Source of the DNA: an uncultured Actinomycetota bacterium | GTDB lineage: Bacteria; Actinomycetota; Actinomycetes; Mycobacteriales; Pseudonocardiaceae | Reading direction: 5' to 3' | DNA: 64,000 bases | NCBI GenBank assembly: GCA_963825445.1 | Contig: CAWGTM010000025.1 | Location: forward strand, 29,976 to 93,975 | Shown here: piece by piece, positions 42,276 to 62,012 of the stretch | Layout: every line of letters starts with the position of its first letter | Position numbering within the stretch: position 1 is the stretch's first letter | Notes under the pieces: generated by a model | Databases searched by the model: none | What the model saw: only the letters and a program-made list of their open reading frames with translations | Told to the model about the DNA's origin: nothing | Program-made: the position numbers and the translations under genes

Positions 42276-42842
42276 GTGGGAAGTCCGGGTGGTGCCGACG
42301 AGGTGACCGAGGCGGCGTTGGCCGCCGGCAGGGGTGATCGGGTCGCCCTGGAGCGGTTCGTACGCGCGACCCAGCGCGACGTGTGGCGGCTCGTCGCGCA
42401 CCTCGGCGGGCCCGGTCTGGCCGACGATCTCGTACAGGAGACGTACCTGCGCGCGCTGCCCAGCCTGCCGTCGTTCGAGGGCCGCTCCTCCGCCAAGACG
42501 TGGCTGCTGTCGATCGCCCGTCATGCCGTGGTCGACCACATCAGAACCGTCACCTCGCGCCCCCGCACGACCGGGGCTGTCGACTGGGTCCGGGTCTCGG
42601 ATTCCCGGCGGAATGACTCGCAGCGTCCCGGTTTCGAGGACATCGTCGAGGTCGCCGTACTTCTCGACGGGCTCTCGCCGGACCGCCGGGAAGCTCTCGT
42701 ACTGACCCAGATCCTGGGCATGTCGTACGACGAGGCGGCCGACGTCTGCGGCGTTCCGGTCGGCACCATCCGCTCCCGTGTCGCACGCGGACGGCACGAT
42801 CTTCTCGAAGCCGACGAGTCACGGCGGCGCGGCACGGCCTGA
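42276..42842 (+). CDS. sigC: ECF sigma factor, mycobacterial SigC-like
   Basis: VTEAALAAGRGDRVALERFVRATQRDVWR, ADDLVQETYLRA, LTQILGMSYDEAA, GTIRSRVAR; TACGCT -10 just upstream. Confidence 0.85.
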   Translation: MGSPGGADEVTEAALAAGRGDRVALERFVRATQRDVWRLVAHLGGPGLADDLVQETYLRALPSLPSFEGRSSAKTWLLSIARHAVVDHIRTVTSRPRTTGAVDWVRVSDSRRNDSQRPGFEDIVEVAVLLDGLSPDRREALVLTQILGMSYDEAADVCGVPVGTIRSRVARGRHDLLEADESRRRGTA

Positions 42843-45113: not shown

Positions 45114-45317
45114 TCAGCTCACGACGCGAAATCCGGCTTCGGCGATGGCGGCGTGCACCAGGTCGACGGGCGGTTGGTCACCGGTCACGGTGACGGTCCC
45201 TGTTCTCAGGTCGACCTGGACGTCGTGGATGCCGTCGATGCCGCCGACCTCGGTGCGTACGGCGTTGACGCAGTGCTCGCAGGTCATGCCTTCGACGGTG
45301 TAGCTGGTGGTCGACAT
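45114..45317 (-). CDS. copZ: CopZ-like copper chaperone (HMA domain)
   Basis: VEGMTCEHCVNAV, 67 aa. Confidence 0.92.
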   Translation of the reverse strand: MSTTSYTVEGMTCEHCVNAVRTEVGGIDGIHDVQVDLRTGTVTVTGDQPPVDLVHAAIAEAGFRVVS

Positions 45318-45337: not shown

Positions 45338-46108
45338 TCAGGCGAGTGGTTGCGCGTGGTAGGTGATCCGGACGATGCCGTCCGGGTGCCGCTCCGTCGT
45401 GGCGTTGATGCCGAAGACATCGCGGAGTACGGCGGGGGTCAGGACGTCGAGCACGGCACCGGCCGCGGCGATCTGTCCGTTGTGGAGGACCACGAGCTGG
45501 TCGCAGCTGCGTGCGGCGAGATCGAGGTCGTGGAGCACGGCGAGGGTGGTGATACCGGTGGAACGGATGAGCGCGAGGAGTTCGAAGCGCGCGCGGATGT
45601 CGAGGTGGTTGGTGGGTTCGTCGAGGACGAGCAGCCGGGGCTGCTGGGCCAGCGCGCGGGCGAGCAGCACACGTTGACGTTCCCCGCCGGAGAGGGTGCC
45701 GTAGGGGCGATCGGCGTAGGACAGAACGCCGGTTCGCTTCAGGGCATCCCTGACGACTTCCTGGTCCTGTGTGGACTCCCGGTCGAGCAGGCCGTGATGC
45801 GGCGTGCGGCCGAGTGCGACGACCTCGGTCACGGTGAGGGCGGCCGGGGTCTGGCCGCTCTGCAGCACGGCGGCGGTCCGCTGTGCCGCGGAGCGGGCGG
45901 ACAGCGTCCACACGTTGTCCTCGCCCACCCGCACCAGACCGCTGTCGGGGCGCAGCGATCGGTAGACGGTGCGCAGCAGCGTGGTCTTGCCGCTGCCGTT
46001 GGGGCCGACGAGACCGACCATCTCTCCTGGCGCCACGTCGAGGTCGGCGTCGCGCAGGATCGTGGTGGTGTCGATGGAGACGGAGACGGCGGTGATGTCC
46101 AGCTTCAC
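45338..46108 (-). CDS. Metal-chelate ABC transporter ATPase (FecE-like)
   Basis: GPNGSGKT, LSGGERQR, LDEPTNHLD, LHDLDLA. Confidence 0.93.
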   Translation of the reverse strand: MKLDITAVSVSIDTTTILRDADLDVAPGEMVGLVGPNGSGKTTLLRTVYRSLRPDSGLVRVGEDNVWTLSARSAAQRTAAVLQSGQTPAALTVTEVVALGRTPHHGLLDRESTQDQEVVRDALKRTGVLSYADRPYGTLSGGERQRVLLARALAQQPRLLVLDEPTNHLDIRARFELLALIRSTGITTLAVLHDLDLAARSCDQLVVLHNGQIAAAGAVLDVLTPAVLRDVFGINATTERHPDGIVRITYHAQPLA

Positions 46109-47175
46109 TGTTCGCTCACCCCGGTCTGGTTGCGGCGCATGAGCCAGAGCAGGAACGGGGCGCCGAACGCGGCGGTGAAGATCCCGAGGGGTAGTTCGTT
46201 GGGGCTGTCCACGGTGCGGGACAGCAGGTCCACCGCGACGAGGTAGGCCGCTCCCACGATGGCCGAGAGCGGTAGCAGCCGGCGATGGTCCAGTCCGAAC
46301 GCCAGCCGAACAACGTGCGGGACCAACAGACCCACGAAACTGATGCCACCCGCGACCCCCGCCACGGTTCCGGCGAGCAGCGCGGCAGCCGTGAGCAGGA
46401 CGATGCGCAGGACACGCACGTCGACGCCCAGGGAGGTCGCGGTCTCCTCACCGGTCACCATGGCATTGAGCCGACGTCCGGTGAGCAGCAGGGCACCGGT
46501 CAGTCCGAGAATGACCGTCGTTGCCACACCGAGCTGGTCCCACTGCGCGCCCGCGACGCTGCCGAGCAGCCAGAACATCACCCGGCGCAGGTCGTTGGAG
46601 TCGGCCTTCAACTGCAGGTAGCTGGTCAGGGCCACCAGGACGTAGCCGACCGCGACCCCGGCGAGCACCAGCCTGGTCGGGGCCAGTCGGCCGTGCTGCT
46701 GCCCGAGGGCGAACACCAGGACTCCCGCGATCATCGCCCCGGCGAACGCCGCGACCGATACGCTCAACCCGCCGACCGCCCCGGCGCCGAGCGTGATCAC
46801 CAGTACCGCACCGACCGAGGCACCCGGGACCAGGCCCAGCACATAGGGCTCGGCCAGCGGGTTGTTCACCAGCGCCTGCAACAACACCCCGGCCACGGCC
46901 AGGCCGGCTCCGCACAGCGCGGCGAGCAGCACTCGGGGTACCCGGAAATCCCACACGATCTGGTCGTAGATGAAGTCCCCGCCGGATTCCCGGCCGGTGA
47001 GGTGGGCCAGCACGATCCCCCAGACGTCGCCCAGCGGCACCGACACCGACCCGATCCCGATCGCGACCAGCATCAGGACGACCAGTCCCGCACCAGCCAC
47101 GACCAGGCACACGCCCAGCGGGACCCCGTGCAGGGGTGCCTGCCGGACGGGCTGGTGACCGCGTCGACGCAGCAT
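46105..47175 (-). CDS. Metal-chelate ABC permease (FecCD family)
   Basis: RVPRV, NPLAEPYVLG, GEETATSLG, ISFVGLLVPH. Confidence 0.93.
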   Translation of the reverse strand: MLRRRGHQPVRQAPLHGVPLGVCLVVAGAGLVVLMLVAIGIGSVSVPLGDVWGIVLAHLTGRESGGDFIYDQIVWDFRVPRVLLAALCGAGLAVAGVLLQALVNNPLAEPYVLGLVPGASVGAVLVITLGAGAVGGLSVSVAAFAGAMIAGVLVFALGQQHGRLAPTRLVLAGVAVGYVLVALTSYLQLKADSNDLRRVMFWLLGSVAGAQWDQLGVATTVILGLTGALLLTGRRLNAMVTGEETATSLGVDVRVLRIVLLTAAALLAGTVAGVAGGISFVGLLVPHVVRLAFGLDHRRLLPLSAIVGAAYLVAVDLLSRTVDSPNELPLGIFTAAFGAPFLLWLMRRNQTGVSEQ

Positions 47176-47179
47176 CAGG

Positions 47180-48214
47180 TCAGAAGACTTCTGGGTGAAG
47201 GAGCTTCGCGATCTCCTCGACGGCGACGGCGTTGCTGGGACCCAGATAGATGGAGTCGGACAGCACCAGGCTGGTTTCCTCCTTGGAGGCCTGCCACTGC
47301 GGGAACAGGTCGAACATCGCCGTGGCGTTGGCCTGCGGGTCGGGGTTCATGTAGTTGATCACGACCAGCGCGTCGACCTGCGCGGCGGAGGCCTGTTCCT
47401 TGCTGATCTTGAGGAAGACGTCCTCGCCGGCGTCGGCGAAGGCGTTGACGGCGCCGGCCTTTGCGAGGATGTCGTTCCAGATGCCGTTGCCGGCCACGGA
47501 GTTCAGGTCCTCCGCGCCCATGCCCGGGAAGATGACCATCACCTTCTTGACGGGCTCGTCGGCCACCTTCGCCTCGATGTCGGCGATCGTGGCCTTCGCG
47601 TCGGCGATGACCTTTTCGGCGCGGTCGGGGACGTCGAAGATCTCGCCGAAGTCGCTCAGCATCGTGTAGCTGTTCTCGATCGTCGCGGTGGCCGAGTAGG
47701 ACTCGCCGCAGGAGGACTCCGGAGCGTAGCTGTTGGCGCCGGCCTTGAGCAGGTCGTCGCGGGTGGCGAAGCCCGAGTCCGCCGAGAATCCCCCGTCATA
47801 GGTGGAGATCACGAAGTCGGGACGCAGTCCGAGCATCGGCTCACGCGGAATGTCCGCGAAGTCGTTGAGCGCCACGTCGCCGGTGGGCAGGTCCTTGATG
47901 GCCTCGACGCGGCCGTCCACCTCGGACGCACCGTAGTTCTGCGCGTTGGCGGCGATCCGGTCGCCGAGGCCGAGTTCGAGCAACGAGGAGACCTCGGCGA
48001 CCGAACCGCCGTTCATCACCACGACCCGGCTCGGCGCCTTGGTGAACGTGTAGTCCTTGCCACAGTTGCTGAACGTCAGCGGATACTCGGTCTTTCCCTC
48101 GCCCGCGGCCGCGGTGTTCTGTGCCTGCCCCGCGGTCGGAGTGGAGGAACCGCAGGCCGTGGCGGTCAACGCCACAGCCGCCACGGTGCAGGCGATCAGC
48201 TGCCGAGCGGACAT
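47180..48214 (-). CDS. Metal-chelate ABC substrate-binding lipoprotein
   Basis: Lipobox ATAC, YPLTFSNCG...FTKAPSRVV; GAGGAG RBS. Confidence 0.9.
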   Translation of the reverse strand: MSARQLIACTVAAVALTATACGSSTPTAGQAQNTAAAGEGKTEYPLTFSNCGKDYTFTKAPSRVVVMNGGSVAEVSSLLELGLGDRIAANAQNYGASEVDGRVEAIKDLPTGDVALNDFADIPREPMLGLRPDFVISTYDGGFSADSGFATRDDLLKAGANSYAPESSCGESYSATATIENSYTMLSDFGEIFDVPDRAEKVIADAKATIADIEAKVADEPVKKVMVIFPGMGAEDLNSVAGNGIWNDILAKAGAVNAFADAGEDVFLKISKEQASAAQVDALVVINYMNPDPQANATAMFDLFPQWQASKEETSLVLSDSIYLGPSNAVAVEEIAKLLHPEVF

Positions 48215-48255
48215 TCTTGTGCTCCTCATGAGGTTGCGCATGTGTCGTTGAAGTA

Positions 48256-48283
48256 AGTCGAACCGGAGAGTGGGAAAGTTCCC
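48256..48283 (-). promoter_or_regulatory. SigC-type promoter GGGAAC-N17-CGACT
   Basis: Exact consensus upstream of the SBP-permease-ATPase-copZ-P1B operon. Confidence 0.88.
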
Positions 48284-48288
48284 GTCAT

Positions 48289-49731
48289 CTACGCCGCCCG
48301 GTCCAGCCGGGACAGGCGCCAGCAGAGCAGGCTGGTGATCGCGGCGCCCACTGCCAGCAGCAGCGCGGCGGCCATGAAGGCGGTGTTCTGGGCGGCGAGG
48401 TCGTTGCCCGGGCCGCCGGGCGGGCCGCCGAGCACGATCCCGTACCAGACTCCGGTGACCGCGAACCCGAAGGCCAGGCCGAACTGGACGACGGTGGAGG
48501 CGATGCCCGACGCGGCGCCGGCGTCGTCCGGGGTGATGCGGCCCAGGATGCCCGCCACGAGCGGGGTGACCACCACGCCCTGTGCGAGCCCCAGCACGGC
48601 GATCATGATGGTCAGCACGACCTGCTGGACGCCCGGGTCGGTGTGTGCCATGGCCGCTCCGATGATCAGGCAGACCGCGTTCACGCAGGTGCCGACGATC
48701 GGCACTCGCATGCCCCACCGGTTGCCGAGGCGTGGAGCGACGGCCGAACCGACCGCGAACATCACACCCAGCGGCATGAACATCAGTCCGGCCGCGAGCG
48801 GGTCGAGCCCCAGCCCGGTCTGCAGGTGGTAGGTGAACACCAGGAACAGCCCGGCGTTGCCGGCGAAGAACACCCCGACCGTGGTCAGGCTGAGCGGAAA
48901 CCCGCGGGTGGTGAGCACGTGCGGCGGATAGAGCGGAGCACCACCACGCCGGGCCACGCCTCGTTGCTGGCGCGCGAGCGCGACCAGCACGAGTACCCCC
49001 GCCGCCGCGCTGCCCCAGATCCATCCCGACCAGCCGGTCCTCGGGCCGAGGATCAGCGGGACCAGCAGCGCCGGGACCGCGACCGCGGTCAGCGCGGCTC
49101 CGATGCCGTCGATGCCGACGACGGTGCCGGGCCGGGACTCGGCGATGGTCAGCGGGCCGAGTACCAGGAGGATGATGCCGATCGGAACGTTGATCAGGAA
49201 CACCGCGCGCCAGCCCAGGCCGGCCACGTCGAGGTCGGTCAACACACCGCCGGCGGCGATCCCGACGATCGTGCCGAGCCCCAGCGAGACTCCGTAGTAG
49301 CCGACCGCCCGGCCGCGTTGTGCCGCGTCGAGGAACGTGGACCGCACGATCGCCAGCACCTGCGGGCCCTGCAGCGCGGCGAACACGCCCTGGACGAACC
49401 GGGCCGCGATGAGCAGTTCGGCGTTCGGTGCGAGCCCGCAGAGCAGCGAGGCGACGGTGAACCCGGCCGCGCCGACCAGGAACATCCTGCGGTGGCCGAA
49501 CCGGTCGCCGAGCCGTCCCCCGGTGACCAGCAGGGCGGCGGCCGCGAACACGAAGACGGCGCCGATGAGTTGGATCTGGTCGAACCCGGCCGGCAGGTCG
49601 CGTTGGATGGTGGGGCTGGCGACGTTGACGATGAACCCGTCGACCTGCCCCATGAACGTGGCCGTCAGGACCACAGCCAGCCCGACCCAGTTGCGGGTGG
49701 ACGCCGTGGTGCGGTCGTCGACGGCGGTCAC
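48289..49731 (-). CDS. MFS (DHA2, 14-TM) exporter
   Basis: DGFIVNVASP, GGRLGDRFGHRR, WRAVFLINVPIG; coupled to the NRPS. Confidence 0.92.
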   Translation of the reverse strand: MTAVDDRTTASTRNWVGLAVVLTATFMGQVDGFIVNVASPTIQRDLPAGFDQIQLIGAVFVFAAAALLVTGGRLGDRFGHRRMFLVGAAGFTVASLLCGLAPNAELLIAARFVQGVFAALQGPQVLAIVRSTFLDAAQRGRAVGYYGVSLGLGTIVGIAAGGVLTDLDVAGLGWRAVFLINVPIGIILLVLGPLTIAESRPGTVVGIDGIGAALTAVAVPALLVPLILGPRTGWSGWIWGSAAAGVLVLVALARQQRGVARRGGAPLYPPHVLTTRGFPLSLTTVGVFFAGNAGLFLVFTYHLQTGLGLDPLAAGLMFMPLGVMFAVGSAVAPRLGNRWGMRVPIVGTCVNAVCLIIGAAMAHTDPGVQQVVLTIMIAVLGLAQGVVVTPLVAGILGRITPDDAGAASGIASTVVQFGLAFGFAVTGVWYGIVLGGPPGGPGNDLAAQNTAFMAAALLLAVGAAITSLLCWRLSRLDRAA

Positions 49732-52700
49732 GCGGTCACCTTCGTCCGGATGCGGTCGGCCAGGATGGTGCCGATCCGCTCCAAAGCCCACGGGTAGACG
49801 ATCTCGTGGTGTACGCAGTCCAACTCGTGGATCTCCAGGTTTCCGTCGATGAACGGTGCCCAGTCGTCGGGGACCGGCCAGTGCGTGGGTTTCTCTTTCG
49901 TGGCCACGAACAGCACGGCGTCGCCGGTGAACTTGCCCGGTGTGAACTCGGCGCCCAGTTCGGAGTTGTTGACGAAGACCCGGTAGAGCCGGTCGATGTG
50001 CTGCTCGACGAGTTCGCCGTACCGCTGGAAGACGTTGGCGACGTAGACCGCCTTGGACTCCACGGTGAAGGTCTCGCGCCAGGACGTGGGGATCGGGAAC
50101 GAGTCCAGCATGGCGAGCAGGGCGACCTCCTCGCCGACGGCCTGCAGTTGTACCGCCATCTCGTGGGCCGCCACGCCGCCGAGGGACCAGCCGAGCAGGT
50201 GGTAGGGGCCGTGCGGTTGCACCGAGCGGAGCTGGTCCACCCAGCGGGCGGCGATCTCGGGGATGCTGGTGGGCAGCGGCTCGTCGCCGGTGATGCCGTC
50301 CGACTGCAGACCGTAGATCCGCTGGTCCGAGCCCAGTCCGGTGACCAGGCTGACGTAGGGCCAGCTCAGCCCCGTCGACGGGGCCACACACCACAGCGGC
50401 ACCGTGTCCCCCTTCTCCCGCAGCGGGAGCAGGACGTCGAACGCGTTCCTGTCGTCCTCGTGGAGCCGTTTGGCCAGCGTGGCGACGGTGGGCGCCTCGA
50501 ACACCGCATTGACCGAGAGCCGGACACCGAACTCGGTGCGGATCCGGCCGAGCAGCCGGGCCACCAGCAGGGAGTGCCCGCCGAGGGCGAAGAAGTCGTC
50601 GTCGACACCGACCTGGGGGAGGTCGAGAATCTCGGCGAACAACGTGCCGAGCAGGCGCTCCCGATGGTCCCGGAGGAGCACACCGGTCGCCGCCGTCGGC
50701 GCTTCCGGGGCCGGCAGCGCCGCCCGGTCCAGCTTGCCGTTCGGGTTGACCGGGAAACGGTCCAGCACGACGTACGCGGGCGGCACCAGGTAGTCCGGCA
50801 ACCGCTCGCTCAGGTATCGGCGCAGGTCGGCGGCCTCCGAGGCGGGGCGGTCCGCTGCCGTCACGGTGTAGGCGACCAGGCGGTCGGCCCGGACGGCGAC
50901 CGCGGCCCGTGCCACGTTCGGGTGTCCACCGAGGACGGCTTCGATCTCGCCGGGCTCGATGCGGAAGCCGCGGATCTTGATCTGGTCGTCGGCGCGGCCG
51001 AGGTACTCCAGCCGGCCGTCGGGTCGCCAGCGGGCCAGGTCCCCGGTGCGGTACATCCGGGCACCGGATCCGCCGTAGGGGTCCGGGAGGAAACGCTGCT
51101 CGGTCAGTTCCGGCCGGTGGTGATAGCCGCGGGCCAGTGGGGTACCGGCCAGGTACAGCTCACCGACCGCGCCGGGCGGCAGCAGTCGGTGCGAGGCGTC
51201 GAGCACGTAGGCCCGGGAGTTGGTCACGGGCCTGCCGACGATCGGGGTGGGGCTGTCGGCGAGCCGGCACCACAGGGTGTCCACCGTGCATTCCGTGGGG
51301 CCGTACAGGTTGTAGCCGGAGACCCCCGGGGTGTCGCGCAGCGCCGTCCACAGCGCCGCTCCGGCCGCCTCGCCGCCGAGTGCGATCACCGCGGGTATGT
51401 GGTGACTGCCGGTGAGCAGTCCCGCGGCGAGCAGTTCCTCGGCGTAGGTCGGGGTGATGTCCAGGAAGTCGACGCCCGCCGTGTCGATGTACTCGATCAG
51501 CCGTTCGGGTTCGCGGCGCACGTCGTCGCCGATGAAGTGCAGTTCGTGGCCGGCGAGCAACCACAGCAGCCCTTCCCAGGAGGTGTCGAACGACAGCGAG
51601 GCGGTCAGCGCCGCCCGGAACCGGCGTCCACCGGCGCGCTCCACCTCGTGGCGGATCAGGTGCTCGTGGTGGTGGTGGAACAGGTTGACCATGCCCCTGT
51701 GCTCCAGCACCGCGCCCTTCGGCGTACCCGTCGAGCCCGAGGTGTAGATCAGGCACAGTGCGGAGTCCGGCGTCAGCGGGCCGGTCCGGTCGGCGTCGGT
51801 CAGCGCGGCACCGGATCGTCGGCCGACCTCGGCACCGACCGCCGGATCGTCGAGCACGATCGCGCCCGGCACATTGTGGGCGAGCGCGTCGTCGGTCAGG
51901 GTGAGCACCGGGTCGGCGTCCTCCAGCAGAAGGCTGATCCGGGTCCGGGGGTAGCTGGGGTCGATCGGGAGGTAGCCCGCGCCGGACTTGAGCACGGCGA
52001 GCAGCGCGACGATCCCCATGGTGGTGCGGGGAAGCAGTAGTGCGACGTAGGTGTCGGGGCCCGCGCCGTGGTCGACCAGGTGGCGGGCGAGCTGGTTGGC
52101 CCGTGTCTCGAGTTCGGTGAACGTCAGCGACGCGTCCTCCGCCACCAGTGCTGTCGCGTCCGGGGTGCGTGCGGCCCGGTCGGCGAACAGGTCCGGTACG
52201 GTCGCCGGCGGCACCCGCCGCGCGGTGTCGTTCCAGTCCACCAGCAGCTCGCGGCGCTCGTGGGCCCCGAGCAGCGCCGCATCCCCGATCGGCCGGGCGG
52301 AGTTGGTGGTCAGCTCCTGGACGAACGCCAGGTACCGGCGCAGATGGGCGTCGAGTTCGTCACGGGTGTAGAGGACCGGGTTGCCGTCGAAGGTCAGGTG
52401 CAGGCCGCTGCCGTCGGCCCGGTCGTAGACGTTGACCACCATGTCCTCGACCAGCCCGGCCGAGACGTTGCGCACGACCGCGGGGTGGCCGGCGAAGTGC
52501 AACCCGTAGTCGAACGGCATGATGTTCATCGACGGACCGAACATCTTGCGGTCGCTGGACACGAGCTTGAGGTCGCGGCGGAGCTGTTCGTAGCGGTAGC
52601 GGTGGTGCCGCCGTCCGGCGCGGACCTCGGCGACGACCGCGCCGGTCAGGTCCTTGAGGTTCACGTCTGGTTCGACCATGAGCCACAGCGGGACGACGTT

Positions 52701-53564
52701 GAGCACCATGCACGGCACCCGCAGCGACACCGAGCACATCCGGGCCATCACCGGCAGGGCGAAGTTCACGTGCGTGGCCCCGGTCATCCGGTGCAGGTAC
52801 GCGGCGAACGTGGCGATGAGGACGTCGGTCCACACGGCCTTCGCGGTGTGCGCCACCGTCCGCAGTTGCTCCACGGTGGACCGGTCGATGACGTCCTCGA
52901 CGCGGCACACCGTCCGGGCGAGCGCGCCGGTCCGGCCCGCCAGGGTCACCGGCTCCGACCTGCCCTCCGCGTAGCCCGTCCAGTGGTCGCGATCTCGTTG
53001 GTAGCGCTCGGACTCCTGATAGGCGAGGTCCTCGTCCACAACGGACCGGAGTGTCCCGAACCCGCACTCCTCGGGTTCCCGTCCCTCGACCAGTGCGGTG
53101 TAGTGCTCGGCCACCCGGCGGGCGACCAGACCGAGGCCGTAGCCGTCCAGCGCGATGTGGTGCACCCGGTGGTACCACAGGGTCCGGTCCTCGGCCAGGC
53201 GGAACACCGCGTGCCCGAACACCGGGTCGGTCGCGAAGTCCACCGGACGGGACAGGTCCTCGGCCATCCACGCGCGGGCGGCGGCCATCGGGTCGTCGTG
53301 ACCGGACAGGTCCGCGACGTGCACCGTCCACACGGGAGCCTGCCCGAGGAACTGCGCCGGTCCGTCGTCGTCCTCGGCGAACCGAACGCCAAGGGCCTCC
53401 GTCTCGTCGACGGCGCGGCGGATCGAGGTGACGAGCAGGTCGACGTCGACCGGCCCGGCGATGTCGACGTACTCGGCGGTGTTGAACGCCGGGCTGTCCA
53501 CCGCGAGTTGCTGCCCGGTCCAGATTCCGTACTGCGCGGCCGACAGCGCGATCCGCTCGGTCAT
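49728..53564 (-). CDS. Single-module NRPS, C-A-T-TE
   Basis: HHIALDG (C), YTSGSTGTPKG, NLYGPTE, YRTGDL, NGKLDR (A), LGGHSLL (T), GWSLGG (TE). Confidence 0.95.
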   Translation of the reverse strand: MTERIALSAAQYGIWTGQQLAVDSPAFNTAEYVDIAGPVDVDLLVTSIRRAVDETEALGVRFAEDDDGPAQFLGQAPVWTVHVADLSGHDDPMAAARAWMAEDLSRPVDFATDPVFGHAVFRLAEDRTLWYHRVHHIALDGYGLGLVARRVAEHYTALVEGREPEECGFGTLRSVVDEDLAYQESERYQRDRDHWTGYAEGRSEPVTLAGRTGALARTVCRVEDVIDRSTVEQLRTVAHTAKAVWTDVLIATFAAYLHRMTGATHVNFALPVMARMCSVSLRVPCMVLNVVPLWLMVEPDVNLKDLTGAVVAEVRAGRRHHRYRYEQLRRDLKLVSSDRKMFGPSMNIMPFDYGLHFAGHPAVVRNVSAGLVEDMVVNVYDRADGSGLHLTFDGNPVLYTRDELDAHLRRYLAFVQELTTNSARPIGDAALLGAHERRELLVDWNDTARRVPPATVPDLFADRAARTPDATALVAEDASLTFTELETRANQLARHLVDHGAGPDTYVALLLPRTTMGIVALLAVLKSGAGYLPIDPSYPRTRISLLLEDADPVLTLTDDALAHNVPGAIVLDDPAVGAEVGRRSGAALTDADRTGPLTPDSALCLIYTSGSTGTPKGAVLEHRGMVNLFHHHHEHLIRHEVERAGGRRFRAALTASLSFDTSWEGLLWLLAGHELHFIGDDVRREPERLIEYIDTAGVDFLDITPTYAEELLAAGLLTGSHHIPAVIALGGEAAGAALWTALRDTPGVSGYNLYGPTECTVDTLWCRLADSPTPIVGRPVTNSRAYVLDASHRLLPPGAVGELYLAGTPLARGYHHRPELTEQRFLPDPYGGSGARMYRTGDLARWRPDGRLEYLGRADDQIKIRGFRIEPGEIEAVLGGHPNVARAAVAVRADRLVAYTVTAADRPASEAADLRRYLSERLPDYLVPPAYVVLDRFPVNPNGKLDRAALPAPEAPTAATGVLLRDHRERLLGTLFAEILDLPQVGVDDDFFALGGHSLLVARLLGRIRTEFGVRLSVNAVFEAPTVATLAKRLHEDDRNAFDVLLPLREKGDTVPLWCVAPSTGLSWPYVSLVTGLGSDQRIYGLQSDGITGDEPLPTSIPEIAARWVDQLRSVQPHGPYHLLGWSLGGVAAHEMAVQLQAVGEEVALLAMLDSFPIPTSWRETFTVESKAVYVANVFQRYGELVEQHIDRLYRVFVNNSELGAEFTPGKFTGDAVLFVATKEKPTHWPVPDDWAPFIDGNLEIHELDCVHHEIVYPWALERIGTILADRIRTKVTA

Positions 53565-53809
53565 GGCCGTCGCCCCGGCGAATCCACGGACAGCACCCGC
53601 CACCACCCGGCGAGCGTGGGTTCCTCGGCCAGCTGCAGGAAGCTGACGTTCGCACCCGCGTTCCGCCAGCGTTCCACCAGAGTCAGGATGCGCACCGAGT
53701 CCAGTCCCTCGGTCAGCAGGTCAGCGTCGTCGGCCACGTCGGAAGGGGCGAGGTGCAGCAGTTCGGCGACGTCGGCGCGAATCTGGTCCCTCGTCAGTGA
53801 GTCGGTCAC
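53561..53809 (-). CDS. Stand-alone carrier protein, EntB/DhbB ArCP-like
   Basis: GLDSVRILTLVERWR...FLQLAEEPTLAGWW. Confidence 0.88.
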   Translation of the reverse strand: MTDSLTRDQIRADVAELLHLAPSDVADDADLLTEGLDSVRILTLVERWRNAGANVSFLQLAEEPTLAGWWRVLSVDSPGRRP

Positions 53810-53819
53810 GGTAGTCCCT

Positions 53820-55379
53820 TCAGTTGACTTGGCGGTCGCGGTCGCGCCAGAAGGCCTCGCGCAGCTCGCGGCGGAGGATCTTGCCGCTGGGGTTGCGGGG
53901 CACGGCGTCGAGGAACTCGAAGCGGGCCGGGATCTTGAACGCCGCGAGGTGGTCCCGCAGGAACACCATCAGGTCCCGCGGCCCCGCCCGCTGCCCGGGT
54001 CGCAGCGCGACGAACGCGCAGACCGCCTCCCCGAAGGTTTCGTCGGGGACACCGATCACCGCGGCCTCGGCGACCGCGGGATGCTTGGTGAGGGCGTTCT
54101 CGATCTCGGTCGGGTAGAGCTTCTCGCCACCGACGATGATCATGTCCTTGAGCCGGTCACTGATGAAGACGTAGCCGTCCTCGTCGACGTGGCCCGCGTC
54201 GCCGGTGTGGACCCACCCGTCGACCAGCGTGCCGGCGGTGGCCGCGGGATTGCCCCAGTACTCCAACATCCGGGCCGGTGTGTGCAGGCACACCTCGCCG
54301 ACCTCGCCCTGCGGCAACGGTTGACCGTCCCCGTCGATGATCTTGACCCGCACGCCGGGGTAGGGCCGGCCCGCGGCCCGCAGCCGGGGACTGCCGGGGG
54401 TGTGGTCGGCGGGTGGGAGGCAGACCGCCGTGTTGCCGGTCTCGGTCAGTCCGTAGATCTGGGCGAGGTCCGCGCCGCAGACGTCGATGGCCTCCTTCAG
54501 GAGGGTTTCCGCGATGGGTGAGCCGCCGTAGACGATCTTGCGGACCGTGCTGAAGTCGGCAGGCCCGACGCCGGGTTCGCCGATCATCAGACGCAGCATC
54601 GAGGGCACCACGCAGATCGCGGTGATGCCCAGCTCTCTGACCAGCTCCACCGCCAGGGTGCTGTCGAAGCGGGGCATGGCGACGTTCGTGATGCCCGCGT
54701 TGAAGCCCTGCATCGCCCACCAGATCCCGCCGACGTGGAAGCCGGGCATGCCGACCAGGCTGCGGTCCCCGGCCCGCCAGTCGATCCAGTCCAGACCCTC
54801 CTCGGCCAACGCGTCCCGGATGGCGAAGAAGCTGCGCTGCGCCAGCACGACGCCCTTGGGCAGGCCCGTGGTGCCACTGGTGTAGAGCTGCACGATCGGG
54901 TCTTCCGGACCGGTGTCCGGTCGAAGGTCCGTCTCCGGTCGCCCGGCCTTCCACCCGGCGAACCCGGCGCCGAGTTCGACGATCGTGCGCAGCCCCGGCA
55001 ACTCCGCGCGGACCTTCTGCGCGATCGCCATCAGTTCGGGCTCCACGAACAGCAGCTCGGTGCCGGAGTCGCGCATGATGTGGTCGACCTCGCCCGTGGT
55101 GAGCCGCCAGTTGACCGGCACCAGCACCGTCGCGCTCTTCGCGCAGCCGAACAGGATCTCGTAGTACTGCTCGGACTCCTTGCCCAGGTAGGCCACCCGG
55201 GCACCCGGCCGCAGCCCGGCCGCGACGATCGCGTGGGCGACCCGGGAGCTTTCCCGGTGGAGCTCGGCGTAGGTCAGGGACCGGCCGGCGCAGATGACCG
55301 CCCGCGTGTCCGGCTGTCCGTCCGCGTGAAACTCGACCACGTCGGCCACTGTCCGCAGGTTCGGGAAGTACACCACCAT
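53820..55379 (-). CDS. Acyl-AMP/acyl-ACP ligase (ScoC/FadD10/SfaB position)
   Basis: YTSGTTGLPKG, IYGLTE, HTGDAG, NPSGKI. Confidence 0.9.
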   Translation of the reverse strand: MVVYFPNLRTVADVVEFHADGQPDTRAVICAGRSLTYAELHRESSRVAHAIVAAGLRPGARVAYLGKESEQYYEILFGCAKSATVLVPVNWRLTTGEVDHIMRDSGTELLFVEPELMAIAQKVRAELPGLRTIVELGAGFAGWKAGRPETDLRPDTGPEDPIVQLYTSGTTGLPKGVVLAQRSFFAIRDALAEEGLDWIDWRAGDRSLVGMPGFHVGGIWWAMQGFNAGITNVAMPRFDSTLAVELVRELGITAICVVPSMLRLMIGEPGVGPADFSTVRKIVYGGSPIAETLLKEAIDVCGADLAQIYGLTETGNTAVCLPPADHTPGSPRLRAAGRPYPGVRVKIIDGDGQPLPQGEVGEVCLHTPARMLEYWGNPAATAGTLVDGWVHTGDAGHVDEDGYVFISDRLKDMIIVGGEKLYPTEIENALTKHPAVAEAAVIGVPDETFGEAVCAFVALRPGQRAGPRDLMVFLRDHLAAFKIPARFEFLDAVPRNPSGKILRRELREAFWRDRDRQVN

Positions 55380-55927
55380 CACCCTTCCTGCCCCGTGCGT
55401 CCGGAACCGACGATCGCGACGGTGACCTCGCCCTCGGACCTGCCGGCGCGGTCGTCCCAGAATCGGAACACCGTGTCCAGCGCGATCAGGGGCGGGCTCT
55501 CCGAGTTGAGCCGCCGCTGTGTCACTCCCGTGAAAGTGATCTCGCCGTGAAAGCCGCGGGGATCGACCGGCGATCGGAAACGGCTGACCAGCTTGGTGAT
55601 CAGGATGTCCGGCAGCCTCCGCCGCCAGTAGTCGTCCATCGTCCACGTGGCGAACACCGGGTCGAGCCGGTCTCGGACCGCGGTGGCGATGACGTGGTAG
55701 AGCATCTGGTTGTAGGCGATGTTGACCTCGACCGCGTTGAGATGGCCGGTGTCGTCGATGTAGCACGACTCGTCGATGGTCAGCTCGCCCACGCCGCGGA
55801 GCTGTCCGTCCACTTCGGAGACCGACATCGCCGTCAGGTACCGACAGTGCGGTTTGTAGCAGTGCAGCACCTGTTCCAGCAGCGCGTCGTCGGCGTCCGG
55901 TGGTGCCTGCGTCCGCGCGGCGGTCAT
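55379..55927 (-). CDS. FcoT-family thioesterase (ScoD/Rv0098-like)
   Basis: [33 protein letters not shown]. Confidence 0.93.
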
Positions 55928-56793
55928 GCGCCGACCCGGTCGTCGTAGACGGTGACCCGGTGGGACACGGCCGGTTCGGACGTGGCCGTGTGCAGTGCGC
56001 GGTGGACCAGGCTGCGGTTGTCCCAGACCAGAAGGTCCCCCTTCTCGAAGGTCTGCAGGTGGATGCTGTCGTGTTCGAAGGTGGTGTCCAGCTGTCCCGT
56101 GGCGGCCAGCAGTTCGCGCAGCAGCTCCGGCTGCGCACGCCCTTCGGCGTCCCTTACGGACAGGGTGAAGCCCTCGCTGATGTACAGGATCGTCTCGTCG
56201 GTGAAGCGGTGCGCGTGCGCGGTCGGCAGCGACACCGGCGGGGTCTTCCGGTCGACCTCGTCGAGCACCTCGGAGATGGGCCGGTAGACATCACTCGGTC
56301 GGATCTTGAAGTACCTGCGCACGCTGTGCACCGCGGTGGTGTTCGCGACAGCGGTCTTCAGTTCGTCGCTGAGCCCGTCGTAGGCGGCGCACAGGTCGAT
56401 GAAGAAGGTGCCCCGGTTCCTGGTCGGCACCACCTGCGGGTGGATGAGGGTGATGTCGAAGGGACGTGGCATGAACTGGTAGTCCGAGTGCCAGAACTTC
56501 CCGGTCTTCGGCACCCCGATCTGTTTGCCGTCCTGTTCCACATTGGACGATACGAAGACCTCCCGGACCTCCGGGTGGTGGTAGATCGGCTCGTAGTACG
56601 TCTCGGGGGTCCCGAGACGGCTGCCTAACTCCAGAAAGGCCTTGGGGTCGAGATCCTGATCCTTGAGTACCGCGATCTTGTCGGTGTAGACGGCGTTCTT
56701 GAGCGTCGCGATGTCCTCGTCGGACACGCTGCCGGCGTCGAAGTCCTCGACCACGACGCCGAACCTGCCGGTGCTCTGCGGGCTGATCCTCAT
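55924..56793 (-). CDS. Fe(II)/2OG isonitrile synthase (ScoE/Rv0097-like)
   Basis: [52 protein letters not shown]. Confidence 0.93.
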
Positions 56794-57038
56794 CGGACGG
56801 TCTCCCGCGCGGCGGAGGCGACGAGGTCCACCAGGTCCGAGATGGTCCGAACACCGGCCAACAGATCGTCCGGGATGGCTACACCGAACTCCTTCTCCAC
56901 CCGCATCAACAGGTCCATCGTGCCCATCGAGTCGACTCCCAGGGTGTCCAGACTCGCCTGCGGTGACACCGGCTCGGTGACACCGTCGACCTCCCGCACG
57001 AACTCGACGATGACAGCTGTGATCTGTTCCTTGTTCAC
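56790..57038 (-). CDS. Acyl carrier protein (ScoB/Rv0100 position)
   Basis: [18 protein letters not shown]; AAGGAG RBS. Confidence 0.9.
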
Positions 57039-57258: not shown

Positions 57259-57286
57259 TGTCGGCAGGCGTGGCGTTCCAGTTCCC
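57259..57286 (-). promoter_or_regulatory. SigC-type promoter GGGAAC-N17-CGACA
   Basis: Upstream of the isonitrile operon. Confidence 0.82.
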
Positions 57287-57317: not shown

Positions 57318-57345
57318 GGGAACTATTCGGTGTCGGGGAACGACG
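57318..57345 (+). promoter_or_regulatory. SigC-type promoter GGGAAC-N17-CGACG
   Basis: Back-to-back with the previous promoter; upstream of the TauE gene. Confidence 0.8.
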
Positions 57346-57430: not shown

Positions 57431-58471
57431 ATGGTCGATGACGTGACGCGACTCGACCAGCATCTGCCCGTCGACGCCGACTCGCCGGTCCGCTCGGCGT
57501 TTCGCTTCCACCTCGTGATCGTCGCGATCGTCTGGGCGGGTTGGCTGGTGTTGGGAGGCGAGGCCGCGTTCGACGCTCTCCGTCGACAGTGGGCGGTCGC
57601 CGTGACGATGGTGTTCGGCTCGCTGGTCGGCGGCGGCACCAGTGAGGGCGGCGGGGCCGTCGCGTTCCCCGTGTTCACCAAACTGCTCCACATCGCCTCC
57701 GACGACGCCCGGATCTTCACCTACGCCGTGCAGTGCGTGGGCATGACGGCCGCGTCGCTGTGCATCCTCTGGATGCGGGTACCCATCGAACGACGAGTGC
57801 TCGCGCTGGGAGTACCAGCGGGGATCGCGGGAGTCGTGCTGAGCGTGACGGCGTTCGCGCCGCTGCTGTCGCTGAGCCACATCCGGATCTACTTCACCGT
57901 CCTGCTCACCAGCCTCGCACTCGCGATGCTCGTGATGCAGTGGCGCGGTGGGAACGCCCGCAACGAGCGGGTGCCCGTCGCGGGCGCGCTGGAAGCCCGG
58001 ATGATCATCGCGGCCGGGTTCGTCGGCGGCATCGTCAGCGGACTGGTCGGCGTCGGTGAGAACACGGTCATGTTCATCCTGCTGGTGCTGCTGTTCCGCG
58101 TGTCGGAGAAAGTGGCCACCCCCACCACCGTGATCCTCATGACCGCGGTGTCACTCGCCGCGTTCGCCGCACACGTGTTCCTGATGCGGGACTTCCACGG
58201 CCCGGTGGTCGAGTACTGGCTCGCCGCGGTGCCGATAGTCGTGGTGGGCGCTCCGATCGGCGCCATCGTGTGCGCGCGGATGTCCCGCGTCCTCATCCGG
58301 CGGACACTGCTCGGACTCATCGCGGTGGAGTTCGTCAGCACCCTGGTCCTGGTACCGATGACCGGTCCCACACTCGCGATCTCGGCCGCCGTACTGCTGG
58401 CCGTGACAATCGGCTGCTGCCTCATGACCGACGTACGCCGCTACGATCCCCGGCGCGGCAACCGAACCTGA
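57431..58471 (+). CDS. TauE/SafE (TSUP) family membrane transporter
   Basis: MVFGSLVGGGTSEGGGAVAFPV, GGIVSGLVGVG, VVVGAPIGA. Confidence 0.85.
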   Translation: MVDDVTRLDQHLPVDADSPVRSAFRFHLVIVAIVWAGWLVLGGEAAFDALRRQWAVAVTMVFGSLVGGGTSEGGGAVAFPVFTKLLHIASDDARIFTYAVQCVGMTAASLCILWMRVPIERRVLALGVPAGIAGVVLSVTAFAPLLSLSHIRIYFTVLLTSLALAMLVMQWRGGNARNERVPVAGALEARMIIAAGFVGGIVSGLVGVGENTVMFILLVLLFRVSEKVATPTTVILMTAVSLAAFAAHVFLMRDFHGPVVEYWLAAVPIVVVGAPIGAIVCARMSRVLIRRTLLGLIAVEFVSTLVLVPMTGPTLAISAAVLLAVTIGCCLMTDVRRYDPRRGNRT

Positions 58472-58482: not shown

Positions 58483-58510
58483 GGGAACCGGACGGTCGGT
58501 CCGTCCGACC
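58483..58510 (+). promoter_or_regulatory. SigC-type promoter GGGAAC-N17-CGACC
   Basis: Exact spacing, just after the TauE stop. Confidence 0.78.
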
Positions 58511-58516: not shown

Positions 58517-58963
58517 GTGCCGGGTCCTGACGGGGAGCCGGCACTCCTGAATGGTGAGTACCGCCGGGCAGGCACAACCCCTCTGTCGGCCCGGCGTCTC
58601 CACCGACCGTGGTCGAGAGGACAAGACGCTGTACAGGTTCAGCCGCCACCACACCGAACGCAACGACAAGGTGTCGCGGGCCGACCGGATCGGCCTCTCG
58701 TGATCACGGTGATCGCAGGGGCGCTCACCCTGGCCCTCGTCGCCGGTTGCGCCTGGGCCGTGTCGGTGGGCGAGTTGAGCGCGTTCCTCGGCCGGCTGAA
58801 CCCCGTCGGCCGATTGGTGACCTACGGCGTCGTCCTGGTCCTGGTGGCGTCCGCCGGGTGGACGGTCGGCTCGGTGGCGGGACCGGCCGACGACCGACCG
58901 GTGCCGGTGGTCCCGGTGTCCGGAGACACCGGGGACGGCGGGGGCCACGGTCACGGCGGATGA
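58517..58963 (+). CDS. Small membrane protein with a His-containing tail (start uncertain, perhaps near 58775)
   Basis: RLVTYGVVLVLVASAGWTVGSVAGP...GGGHGHGG. Confidence 0.55.
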   Translation: MPGPDGEPALLNGEYRRAGTTPLSARRLHRPWSRGQDAVQVQPPPHRTQRQGVAGRPDRPLVITVIAGALTLALVAGCAWAVSVGELSAFLGRLNPVGRLVTYGVVLVLVASAGWTVGSVAGPADDRPVPVVPVSGDTGDGGGHGHGG

Positions 58964-58986: not shown

Positions 58987-59772
58987 TCAGCCGCCGAGTG
59001 CGTTGGCGATCTCCGTCGCGTTCGCCGTGTAGACATCGAGTAGGTCGAGGTCGTCGCCGGGAAAGTTGACGATGGTGACCTGCTCGGCCGAGGTGTCGGG
59101 CAGGACCGTGCCGGTCGACATGTGTGCGTTGTCGAAGACCAGGTCGGGCCCGGCGGCAGAGAGTTCCGCGAGTCGGGTGGGCGTGACGGGCTCGGGTCCG
59201 AAGGTGCCGACGGTCTGCGACCCCGTGATGACGGCCATGTAGGCCACGAAGACCTGGGTGGCCACCTTCGGCGCCTCGCCGTCCCGCCAGGACTGTTCGA
59301 CAGTGGTCCTCGCCTCCGTCAACGTGGTGTCGAACTCCTCGAGCCAGTCCTCCGCGGCGTCCTCCGTACCCAGGATGCCGGCGATCCTGCGCACCTCGGC
59401 GCGAACCACGTCCGGGGTGTTGTCGAGCCGCAGTTCCTCCATCCGCGCGTCGCCGCCGGCCGCTTCGCGGAGCCTGTCCGCGAAGCTCTCGTACTCCGCG
59501 TACAGCACGAGGTCCGCCTCGCCGACCGCTACGAGGTCCGAGGCCTTCGGGTCGTACTCGAACGCGTGCGTGATCGACGAGGGCACGACCACCGTGACGT
59601 CGGTCGCGCCGGCGGCCGCGGCGAGGGCGCCTTCCCAGGTGGTGGCGGCGACGATCTTCTTGCCGGCTTCCCCGTCCCCCGTGGTGCTCGAGCCGGCGGT
59701 GTCGTCGCCGCACGCGGTCAAGATCAGTGTCGCCGCGGTCAGCGCGGCGATCAGTGGTCGGGCGGTGTTCAC
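58987..59772 (-). CDS. ZnuA/TroA-like metal-binding lipoprotein
   Basis: Lipobox LTAC, THAFEYDPKASD, ADLVLY. Confidence 0.8.
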   Translation of the reverse strand: MNTARPLIAALTAATLILTACGDDTAGSSTTGDGEAGKKIVAATTWEGALAAAAGATDVTVVVPSSITHAFEYDPKASDLVAVGEADLVLYAEYESFADRLREAAGGDARMEELRLDNTPDVVRAEVRRIAGILGTEDAAEDWLEEFDTTLTEARTTVEQSWRDGEAPKVATQVFVAYMAVITGSQTVGTFGPEPVTPTRLAELSAAGPDLVFDNAHMSTGTVLPDTSAEQVTIVNFPGDDLDLLDVYTANATEIANALGG

Positions 59773-59773
59773 G

Positions 59774-60583
59774 TCAGGTTCTCCTCGTCGGTATCAACTG
59801 GGCCAGCAAGGCGATGGCGCCTGCCAGCAGAACGAGCACGGGGCCGGGCGGCTGGTCCAGCACGAGGGCGACCCAGAGGCCGACGACGGCCACCACCAGC
59901 CCGATGACGATCGAGGCGATGACCATGCCCGTGAGCCCGCGTCCGATCCGTCGGGCCGCCAGCGCGGGCAGCAACGTCAGCGCGTCGACCAGCAGCGCAC
60001 CGGTCAGTTTGATGGCGCCGGCGATCGACACGGCGATCACCACGAGCAGCAGAACCGTCATCGGACCGGTCCGCACTCCTGAGGCCGCCGCGAGTTCCCG
60101 GTCGTGCAGCAGCAGTGCGAGGTCCCGCCGTCGCCACCAGAACAGCGTGGGGATCACCACCGCCAGCACGCCGAGGATCGCCAGGTCCACCGGCCGGGTG
60201 GACAGGATGGACCCCCACAGCAGCTCGAACGCTCCGCCAGCGCTGACCCCGGAGATCGACAACACCAACAGCGCCACGGCGATCGCCAGGCTCATCAGAA
60301 GGCCCATGGCGCCGCTGAGCCCGCCGGACGTCGTCGCGAACGGCGCGAGCCCGCCACCGGCGACCGCGCACAGCAGCAGCGCCCACAGCAACGGGTCGGA
60401 GCCGGTCAGCATGCCGATGGCGGCACCGAGCAGCGCCACGTGCATGATCGCGAACCGCACCGGATAGATGTCCAGGCCGACGATCAGTACACCGACCGGC
60501 GGCAGTGCGATCGCACCGAGCAGCAAACCGAACCCGGCCCGCTGCACCGACGCCAGCCCCAGCAGTTCCATGACGTCGGTCAC
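59774..60583 (-). CDS. ZnuB/ABC-3 family permease
   Basis: MHVALLG, LWGSIL, DRELAAASG, GALLVDAL. Confidence 0.88.
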   Translation of the reverse strand: MTDVMELLGLASVQRAGFGLLLGAIALPPVGVLIVGLDIYPVRFAIMHVALLGAAIGMLTGSDPLLWALLLCAVAGGGLAPFATTSGGLSGAMGLLMSLAIAVALLVLSISGVSAGGAFELLWGSILSTRPVDLAILGVLAVVIPTLFWWRRRDLALLLHDRELAAASGVRTGPMTVLLLVVIAVSIAGAIKLTGALLVDALTLLPALAARRIGRGLTGMVIASIVIGLVVAVVGLWVALVLDQPPGPVLVLLAGAIALLAQLIPTRRT

Positions 60584-61211
60584 GAGGCGTCCCGCAGACG
60601 GCCGGCGGCCATCTCCACCACTCGGTCGCAGGCCCGCACCACGGCGCGGTCGTGTGTGGCGACCAGCAGTGTCACGGCGAGTCCGGCGAGCATCTCGGCT
60701 GCCTCGGCCTGTCCGTCGAAGTCCAGCGCCGCTGTCGGCTCGTCCGCGAGCAGGACCTCCGCGCCCGCCGCCACGCAGCCCACCGCTCTCGCCAGCCAGG
60801 CTCGCTGAGCCTGACCACCTGAGAGGGTGTGCACACCACGTCGCTCCAATCCGTCCAGACCGAGTCGCCGGGCCGCCTCCCGCGCGGCGTCCCGGTCGCC
60901 GCTGCTGTCGAGCAGTTCATCCACCAACAGGGGGAAACGGCCCGCCGCCCGCGACTGGGGAATCCACGCCACCATCCGCCGGCGCCGCCGCCACTGCGCC
61001 GCGCTCACCGCCTGGTGTCCACCGATCTCGACCACGCCCGCGGTGACCGGGTGGAATCCCAGCACCGCCCGCAGCAGCGTCGACTTGCCCGACCCGTTGG
61101 TGCCGACGAGTGCGACCCGCTGCCCGGCGGGCACGGTCAGGCTCACGTTCCGCACGACGACATGCCGGCCATGGCGGCACTCGACCTCGCGCAACGACAC
61201 GGCCGGCGCGG

Positions 61212-61215
<4 letters not shown>
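60580..61215 (-). CDS. ZnuC-like ABC ATPase
   Basis: GTNGSGKST, LSGGQAQR, ADEPTAALD. Confidence 0.88.

Positions 61216-62008
<793 letters not shown>

Positions 62009-62012
<4 letters not shown>

Follow-up and report, generated by a model that had tools for sequence, protein, structure and literature searches.

Isonitrile lipopeptides (INLPs) are made by compact gene clusters of actinomycetes, of which ScoA-E of Streptomyces coeruleorubidus, MmaA-E of Mycobacterium marinum, Rv0097-0101 of Mycobacterium tuberculosis and sfa of Streptomyces thioluteus (product SF2768) are the closest described systems to the locus reported here. Diisonitrile chalkophores are needed by M. tuberculosis against copper starvation and act as antibiotics in Streptomyces. 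In the characterised members the nonribosomal peptide synthetase (NRPS) ends in an NAD(P)H-dependent reductase (R) domain, which releases the product as an aldehyde or alcohol, and to our knowledge the described diisonitrile chalkophores are all reductively released alcohols or derivatives of them. The DNA studied here is a stretch of 64,000 nucleotides (the window; positions 29,976 to 93,975 of contig CAWGTM010000025.1, GenBank assembly GCA_963825445.1) from an uncultured bacterium of the Pseudonocardiaceae. Like the known clusters, it encodes a ScoE, a ScoD homologue, a ScoC-type ligase, an aryl carrier protein (ArCP)-class carrier and a single condensation-adenylation-thiolation (C-A-T) module for lysine or ornithine; unlike them, its NRPS ends in a thioesterase (TE). 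We think it somewhat more probable than otherwise that this is a compact and complete INLP chalkophore cluster in which the reductase has been replaced by a type I TE, and whose product would be the free acid N,N′-bis(3-isocyanobutanoyl)-ornithine or -lysine.

An earlier note, made from the letters of the window, had described seven genes at 48289-57038 and had read them as an isonitrile cluster fused to an enterobactin-style assembly line. Gene calling guided by G+C content at third codon positions (GC3) in this DNA of about 70% G+C, together with Pfam and NCBIfam scans, located all seven on the minus strand. The first gene of the operon encodes a classical acyl carrier protein (ACP1, 82 aa, LGVDSM motif, 56790-57038; PF00550 PP-binding E 1.3e-14 and ACP-type NCBIfam matches) and has a GTG start with an AAGGAG ribosome-binding site 7 nt upstream. 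It is followed by the ScoE-type Fe(II)/2-oxoglutarate-dependent isonitrilase (289 aa, 55924-56793), the ScoD or FcoT-like (2E)-enoyl-ACP glycyltransferase-thioesterase (182 aa, 55379-55927), the ScoC-type acyl-ACP ligase of the FadD10 family (519 aa, 53820-55379; AMP-binding E 1.8e-77), a stand-alone ArCP-class carrier (CP2, 82 aa, PP-binding domain only, 53561-53809), the single-module C-A-T-TE NRPS (1278 aa, 49728-53564, ATG start at 53564; Pfam Condensation, AMP-binding, PP-binding and Thioesterase) and a DHA2-type major facilitator superfamily (MFS) efflux pump (480 aa, 48289-49731; MFS_1 E 5.6e-43, EmrB subfamily). At four junctions the stop codon of one gene shares bases with the start of the next, as ATGA or GTGA (ACP/ScoE, ScoE/ScoD, carrier/NRPS and NRPS/MFS, the last as GTGA), ScoD and the ligase overlap by one base, and a gap of 10 nt separates the ligase from the carrier. 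The inventory, the positions and the nearly complete translational coupling given in the earlier note were thus confirmed.

The source is a soil-metagenome genome bin, 85% complete, and we therefore looked at the continuity of the assembly. The region is covered at an even depth of about 9-13 by Logan contigs from this run, which span the T|TE junction (48000-50800); the ligase-carrier-NRPS junction (52516-54744) is likewise spanned by independent Logan contigs at even depth, which makes an assembly chimera unlikely. An independent JGI metagenome contig (L007) carries an NRPS gene 82% identical to that of the window, with the same C-A-T-TE fusion. These bridging contigs and the L007 gene together show that the architecture is real. 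All reading frames are open, with coupled starts and high GC3.

The NRPS consists of C (52230-53564), A (50685-52229), T (50430-50684) and TE (49731-50429) domains, all on the minus strand. Its C-terminal 233 residues are a type I TE (PF00975 Thioesterase, E 2.5e-22). No NAD_binding_4 or Epimerase match was found in the NRPS, and an R-domain query matched nothing within the window. The catalytic triad of the TE is intact (Ser in GWSLGG, Asp in MLDSF, His in CVHHE), each residue aligning to the triad of the skyllamycin TE. This enzyme (Skyxy-TE, 7CRN/7DXO) is also the best solved match, with an E value of 2.2e-46 compared with 5e-28 for EntF-TE. A terminal reductase was the only defining INLP feature missing from the locus, and by these comparisons the terminal TE is the sole real departure of the predicted machinery from the normal INLP line. 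The central claim of the earlier note, a ScoE-type cluster whose NRPS ends in TE instead of R, therefore stands, and a non-reduced product, which it had also proposed, would follow logically from this replacement.

The rest of the module belongs to the INLP line. In the NCBIfam ranking MxcG came first with 889 bits over C-A-T, followed at 670 bits by EntF over the full length; the EntF structure 5JA1 aligned with E 2e-173. The closest C-A-T homologues are R-type MxcG-like synthetases (up to 72% identity), among which the window enzyme is nested in trees, so the suggestion of an EntF-style C-A-T has to be given up. The C domain has the motif HHIALDG. The ten-residue specificity code of the A domain, extracted by motif position and alignment, reads DTEDAGLVDK. 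All 23 other TE-type sequences share this code with the window, as do 18 of R-type, including sequences from Actinomadura; the R-type row of Actinocrispum wychmicini (L010) matches it at nine positions, the tenth being a gap, and DTEDAGLIDK is the code of two Actinomadura enzymes. Because of the acidic residues at positions 239, 278 and 331, the code points to a basic amino acid, ornithine or lysine, as the predicted substrate, and not to serine; an A domain activating Ser or Thr, as in the enterobactin system, was not found. For comparison, we take the serine code of EntF to be DVWHFSLVDK. SF2369, from an Actinomadura strain whose own genome lies outside the code comparison, has an ornithine core (PMC9600254).

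The window ScoE scored 458.7 bits on NF049937 (cut-off 400). It aligned without gaps to crystallised ScoE (6DCH; 417 bits, E 2.6e-124), with H102 and D104 conserved, and is predicted to convert a 3-[(carboxymethyl)amino] fatty acid into the 3-isocyano acid. Residues E207/G208/F209, S157 and Y161 correspond to the positions that form the short-chain pocket in the reference ScoE (E237/G238/F239, S187 and Y191; PMC11811631), and for this reason an acyl chain of C4, perhaps C6, is expected. ScoD adjoins ScoE and matches PF10862 with E 5.2e-55; its orthologues, 48-73% identical, occupy the equivalent position in R-type clusters and are syntenic in 48 of 48 R-type loci. Syntenic orthologues of the ligase (60-84% identical) are equally present in all 48, and the ligase aligned to the FadD10 structure 4IR7 with E 2.2e-72. 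Fatty-acid-CoA ligases and FadD10 were its best NCBIfam matches, with no dihydroxybenzoate-AMP ligase among the top 25.

The earlier note had regarded CP2 as an added carrier of the EntB kind. The best solved matches of CP2 are indeed ArCP domains, those of EntB (9.5e-11), PchE and HMWP2. Homologues with 46-66% identity, however, stand between the ligase and the NRPS in 48/48 R-type loci and are also present in 22/22 TE-type loci, and the alignment revealed the EntB-ArCP hallmark GLDSxR...ERW...WW..LL in carriers of Kutzneria sp. 744, Streptomyces, Nocardia, Actinomadura and the TE-type clusters. Since a homologue with the same motif precedes the NRPS in every R-type locus, CP2 is, as judged by synteny and motif, the canonical INLP carrier in the ScoB/SfaC position and not an enterobactin graft. 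SfaB, SfaC and SfaD have been noted to resemble MxcE, MxcF and MxcG (PMC13500777). With the ScoC-type ligase and the stand-alone carrier directly before the NRPS, synteny suggests that CP2 is loaded by this ligase and hands the isocyano-acyl group to the C domain.

Nor is the presence of two carriers a special feature, as had been thought. ACP1 orthologues, usually straight after a FabH-type 3-ketoacyl-ACP synthase III (KAS III), were found in at least 22 of the 48 R-type loci, and KAS III itself in 39. The window has a KAS III gene at 40599-41633 on the plus strand (start probably 40599; NF006829, 365.7 bits), 68-75% identical to those of L010 and of Actinokineospora fastidiosa (L009). It lies apart from the operon, 16 kb away and past the transport genes, whereas the R-type orthologue directly precedes ACP-ScoE. 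The KAS III and the second ACP are additions to the five-gene INLP core as described, and both occur in many uncharacterised R-type clusters.

The distribution of the architecture was surveyed in 80 genomic loci with a ScoE alignment and six more obtained by exact protein look-up, which reduced to 82 unique loci and were scored by tblastn at the level of domains. The NRPS was R-terminated in 48 and TE-terminated in 22; the remaining 12 were truncated or different. The arrangement is thus not unique. An MFS gene follows the NRPS in 22/22 TE-type and 40/48 R-type loci. In maximum likelihood trees of C-A-T, C and A the window and L007 were sisters with 99-100% SH-aLRT support. In the C-A-T and C-alone trees this pair nested with the R-type A. 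wychmicini and A. fastidiosa (96-97%); in the A-alone tree the same two R-type rows were nearest, but the smallest starred set beyond the pair comprised 20 rows. The C-A-T, C and A sequences of the window and L007 fell outside the TE clade formed by 18 members from Actinophytocola, Saccharothrix and Micromonospora. A tree constrained to unite the 20 TE-type rows was worse by 66 log-likelihood units, and a single TE clade was rejected by the approximately unbiased (AU) test (p 0.0098). ScoE of the window grouped with that of Actinocrispum (83% identity, 96% support), and ScoE of L007 grouped instead with the Actinophytocola set. In the TE tree the TEs of the window and L007 grouped with those of about 20 other ScoE-linked NRPSs, and the TE of Allokutzneria sp. 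A3M-2-11 16 (L049) was separate. The phylogeny of the C and TE domains, which the earlier note had named as a check, thus gave a split answer: C follows the R-type enzymes and TE follows the TE-type clusters. The simplest history would be that an Actinocrispum-like R-type cluster exchanged its terminal domain for a TE from a TE-type lineage, with at least one further independent TE acquisition suggested elsewhere by the trees.

The nearest relatives of the individual proteins agree with this picture. A. wychmicini DSM 45934 (L010) and A. fastidiosa JCM 3276 (L009/L013), both R-type and uncharacterised, have the nearest ScoE (83% and 80%), ScoC (84% and 79%) and C domain (74% and 68%), and are also nearest for MFS, SBP and FecCD, the last two being the substrate-binding protein and permease of the importer described below. 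They share with the window the order ACP-ScoE-ScoD-ScoC-carrier-NRPS-MFS-SBP-FecCD, and the A code is identical in L009; the full order in A. fastidiosa is KAS III-ACP-ScoE-ScoD-ligase-carrier-NRPS(R)-MFS-SBP-FecCD-ATPase. Unlike the window, their NRPSs end in R and KAS III stands immediately before the ACP. The TE-type clusters of Actinophytocola, Saccharothrix/Actinosynnema and Micromonospora (L004-L006, L008 and others), together with L007, likewise uncharacterised, share with the window a core of ScoE-carrier-C-A-T-TE-MFS-SBP-FecCD-ATPase with a P1B ATPase nearby; their TEs form one group with the window TE and their A code is identical. They differ in lacking ScoD and ScoC beside ScoE, and in having C-A-T and ScoE from another clade. 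In three genomes checked, ScoD of such clusters lay 2-8 kb beyond the fetched locus. Among the loci surveyed, adjacent ACP, ScoD and ScoC genes accompany a TE-type NRPS only in the window and in L049, which shares the complete compact layout with a TE of separate origin.

Most TE-type loci carry two further genes between the P1B ATPase and ScoE (L004:3516-4532 and 7149-7949; also L005, L006 and others). One encodes a conserved 338-aa protein with no Pfam or NCBIfam match (18/22 TE-type loci) and the other an alpha/beta hydrolase (15/22); neither has a homologue in the window.

The relation to catechol siderophores is one of layout. As in myxochelin (MxcE/F/G, C-A-T-R) and EntB/EntF biosynthesis, a starter-type C domain would transfer the acyl group of an ArCP-class carrier to an amino acid bound to the T domain, and MxcG acylates both amines of lysine. 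Reduced myxochelin and the free acid azotochelin offer a catechol analogy to R- and TE-type INLPs, for which a literature search gave no support. In contrast to the enterobactin and myxochelin systems, the window contains neither dihydroxybenzoate genes nor a carrier fused to an isochorismatase (no scan for ent genes was made across the whole genome). Enterobactin-type supply and activation of an aryl acid were not found: the carrier stands alone, and the ligase is fatty-acyl (FadD10-like) and unlike EntE. The A code points away from serine, and the TE has no specific likeness to that of EntF. By these comparisons the cluster is neither a fusion of two pathways nor a categorically new scaffold, but appears to be a TE-terminated INLP variant, of a TE family that is common (22/82 loci) and whose mode of release is uncharacterised.

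Transport and copper-handling genes adjoin the operon. Downstream of it on the minus strand a chelate-type ABC importer is encoded by a lipoprotein SBP gene (47180-48214, start at 48214, with a lipobox; Peripla_BP_2), a FecCD permease gene (46105-47175) and an ATPase gene (45338-46108; ABC_tran). The importer is conserved in R- and TE-type loci, and a homologous transporter imports Cu-SF2768 in S. thioluteus (PMC13500777). Next on the same strand come a CopZ-like metallochaperone of 67 aa with an MTCEHC motif (45114-45317) and a P1B-type copper ATPase (42865-45072; HMA, E1-E2_ATPase and Hydrolase domains; TIGR01511, 533 bits). Of the TE-type loci 17/22, and of the R-type loci 25/48, have a P1B ATPase within 10 kb. 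The combination of MFS exporter and chelate ABC importer is that of sfa, and the MFS pump is presumed to export the apo-chelator. Taken together, the gene neighbourhood makes a copper-chalkophore context well supported.

A SigC-like extracytoplasmic function (ECF) sigma factor is encoded at 42231-42842 on the plus strand (Sigma70_r2/r4_2; NF007231, 213.6 bits against the SigC equivalog cut-off of 219), divergent from a gene for a zf-HC2 anti-sigma factor (41918-42211, minus strand). A tblastn search with the sigma factor gave 53 matches, 43-70% identical, in the fetched ScoE loci, a count that includes the window's own and second matches in some loci. A generic ECF promoter pattern (GGAAC ... 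CGT), tried first, gave nothing coherent in the window. The pattern GGGAAC-N17-CGAC was then derived from three upstream regions and tested across the window, where it has six exact sites, all between 40.5 and 58.5 kb; 0.39 are expected, and none of 100 shuffles reached six. The sites lie upstream of the biosynthetic operon (57260-57286, minus), before the importer-CopZ-ATPase operon (48257-48283, minus), which contains the P1B ATPase, before the anti-sigma gene (42221-42247, minus), before KAS III (40563-40589, plus), before a TauE-family gene (57318-57344, plus) and before a small membrane-protein open reading frame (58483-58509, plus). For both KAS III and the anti-sigma gene about 10 nt separate CGAC from the start codon, a spacing suggestive of leaderless mRNAs. 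When M. tuberculosis is starved of copper, its SigC directly drives the P1B ATPase gene ctpB and the isonitrile operon ppe1-nrp (PMC7924339); the window likewise has a SigC-like sigma factor and a P1B ATPase. The sigma factor probably drives all these operons from the GGGAAC-N17-CGAC promoters, and the cluster is probably regulated by copper starvation.

The two plus-strand genes that follow the promoter-like sites at 57318-57344 and 58483-58509 encode a TauE/SafE-family membrane protein (57443-58471) and a hydrophobic protein of 87 aa (58700-58963). The TauE gene had no homologue in any of the 86 related loci, and is by this measure specific to the window genome. A further metal-uptake block follows on the minus strand at 58987-63998, with a ZnuA-like SBP fragment, an ABC-3 permease, an ABC ATPase, a FecCD permease and a Peripla_BP_2 SBP. 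At 161 aa, with a match to only the C-terminal half of ABC_tran, its ATPase looks short, and some genes of the block may be truncated.

A pathway can be proposed from these assignments. KAS III and ACP1, with housekeeping reductase and dehydratase, would supply a short enoyl-ACP (crotonyl). ScoD would add glycine and then hydrolyse the adduct, and ScoE would form 3-isocyanobutanoate; both enzyme families are seen here, and the chemistry is that of characterised homologues. By synteny, the ScoC ligase is expected to charge the ArCP-class CP2 with the isocyano acid. The C domain would acylate both amino groups of T-bound ornithine or lysine, as the identical A code and its kinship to R-type enzymes suggest. 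With both amines acylated no internal nucleophile would be left, and hydrolysis would thus be the default release. The TE would then yield N,N′-bis(3-isocyanobutanoyl)-ornithine or -lysine, with a free carboxylate in place of the amino-alcohol. The product would leave by the MFS pump, its copper complex would return through SBP-FecCD-ATPase, as with the homologous SF2768 transporter, and the metal would be handled by CopZ and the P1B ATPase.

Several points weigh against this reading. ScoD scored 228 bits on NF049938, under the equivalog cut-off of 250, and the roles proposed for ACP1 and KAS III are those suggested by gene neighbourhood. The ten-residue code does not separate ornithine from lysine, and the same is true of Rv0101, whose A1 domain is predicted for lysine although the natural product has ornithine. 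A C-A-T module whose code is that of its R-type relatives is present, but the double acylation proposed for it follows the example of ScoA and MmaA, to which the window enzyme is less closely related (the Streptomyces A domains are about 35% identical), and sequence does not distinguish hydrolysis from cyclisation by the TE. The group used in the AU test was defined after the trees had been inspected.

The last but one of these points leaves room for a TE that cyclises. If the alpha-amine alone were acylated, the side-chain amine could attack the thioester, on the TE or spontaneously, to give a mono-isonitrile 3-acylamino-piperidin-2-one or caprolactam. The skyllamycin TE, the nearest solved one, is bifunctional and cyclising, a six-membered lactam forms easily from an ornithine thioester on general chemical grounds, and a lactam was among the options in the earlier note. 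We nevertheless consider this outcome unlikely: the C domain is 74% identical to an R-type C domain and nested among R-type enzymes, characterised INLP C domains acylate both amines, and with a single isonitrile the product would bind Cu(I) less strongly than the known diisonitriles do. Off-loading to another nucleophile (an amine, a polyamine or an alcohol), or modification of the acid by a trans-acting enzyme, would give an amide or ester. The TauE-family and small membrane proteins, which carry the same promoter-like motif, and the alpha/beta hydrolase and 338-aa protein of other TE-type clusters could be seen in this light, but the latter two are absent from the window and there is no tailoring enzyme within the operon; this route appears quite unlikely.

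The TE could also work iteratively as in EntF, collecting two or three acyl-amino-acid units into a multi-isonitrile, as the earlier note had proposed. The C-A-T-TE layout is shared and the EntF alignment extends over the full length, and a tetra-isonitrile would bind Cu(I) 1:1, where SF2768 needs 2:1 (PMC13500777). A basic-amino-acid code, on the other hand, means that the serine hydroxyl for EntF-style ester oligomerisation is absent, and no free amine would remain. The code is identical to that of R-type relatives and differs from the one we take to be EntF's, the C-A-T descends from the MxcG/ScoA line, and the TE is nearer Skyxy-TE than EntF-TE. Oligomerisation of the enterobactin kind thus seems highly improbable. 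A related idea, that the TE joins two bis- or mono-acylated ornithine or lysine units, or macrolactamises, to give a tri- or tetra-isonitrile binding Cu(I) 1:1, is hardly less improbable. If true, it would make the product a chalkophore scaffold with a stoichiometry unlike the 2:1 SF2768 type, and the repeated R-to-TE swaps in actinomycetes would mark selection for such a scaffold. That the cluster is a recent, non-functional recombinant, or the contig an assembly chimera of R-type and TE-type strains, is harder still to credit. The incomplete metagenomic source and the different nearest relatives of ScoE/C/A and TE would fit it, but the same fusion in L007, the Logan contigs across both junctions, and the open frames, coupled starts, high GC3 and intact catalytic motifs speak against it.

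The hydrolytic reading, with a free diisonitrile acid as product, therefore remains the one we prefer. Our search of the open-access literature (most subscription journals being outside its scope) turned up neither a TE-terminated INLP synthetase nor a free-carboxylate diisonitrile amino acid. With a TE-released branch, this medically relevant metallophore family would come to include diisonitriles that are carboxylates, or cyclised, and whose charge, solubility and perhaps metal stoichiometry would be different. The branch makes up about one quarter of the nearest 82 ScoE loci and has arisen or been transferred at least three times. As one of only two compact versions, with every biosynthetic gene, exporter, importer, copper-handling genes and regulator within 17 kb, the window cluster is the most convenient representative for heterologous expression. 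A conserved NRPS in which T|TE has naturally taken the place of T|R is also useful for engineering.

The survey gave some further observations. Four loci with Pseudonocardiaceae-like sequences (L011, L012, L014 and L015) have an ACP-ScoE-ScoD-ScoC-carrier block followed by a C domain of 59-62% identity and an unrelated A domain (27-28%), which suggests a third kind of downstream assembly line. One of them, L011 (CAWFTJ010000008.1, 860 kb), is labelled 'Candidatus Melainabacteria', with a ScoE 79% identical to that of the window and Pseudonocardiaceae-like KAS III, ACP, ScoD and ScoC; the bin label looks wrong, or the contig mis-binned. In Micromonospora sp. KLBMP9576 the ScoE-NRPS(TE) cluster is preceded, 8 kb upstream (L005:1-1088), by genes for a PvcA/DIT1-type isonitrile synthase and its TauD-family partner, for a UbiA prenyltransferase and for a NUDIX protein, so that two unrelated isonitrile-forming systems are neighbours there.

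The genome of the window itself has a second ScoE (452.9 bits) at 78454-79329 of another contig (G000 contig C7; L003:12449-13330, with the cluster extending downstream to L003:1850). No FcoT homologue adjoins it. The surrounding cluster is of the polyketide synthase type, with an ACP, a KS-AT-DH-KR-ACP synthase, a stand-alone KS, an acyl ligase, a P450 and an acetoacetate decarboxylase-like protein, and presumably resembles the epoxy-isonitrile fatty acid (amycomicin/aerocyanidin) type.

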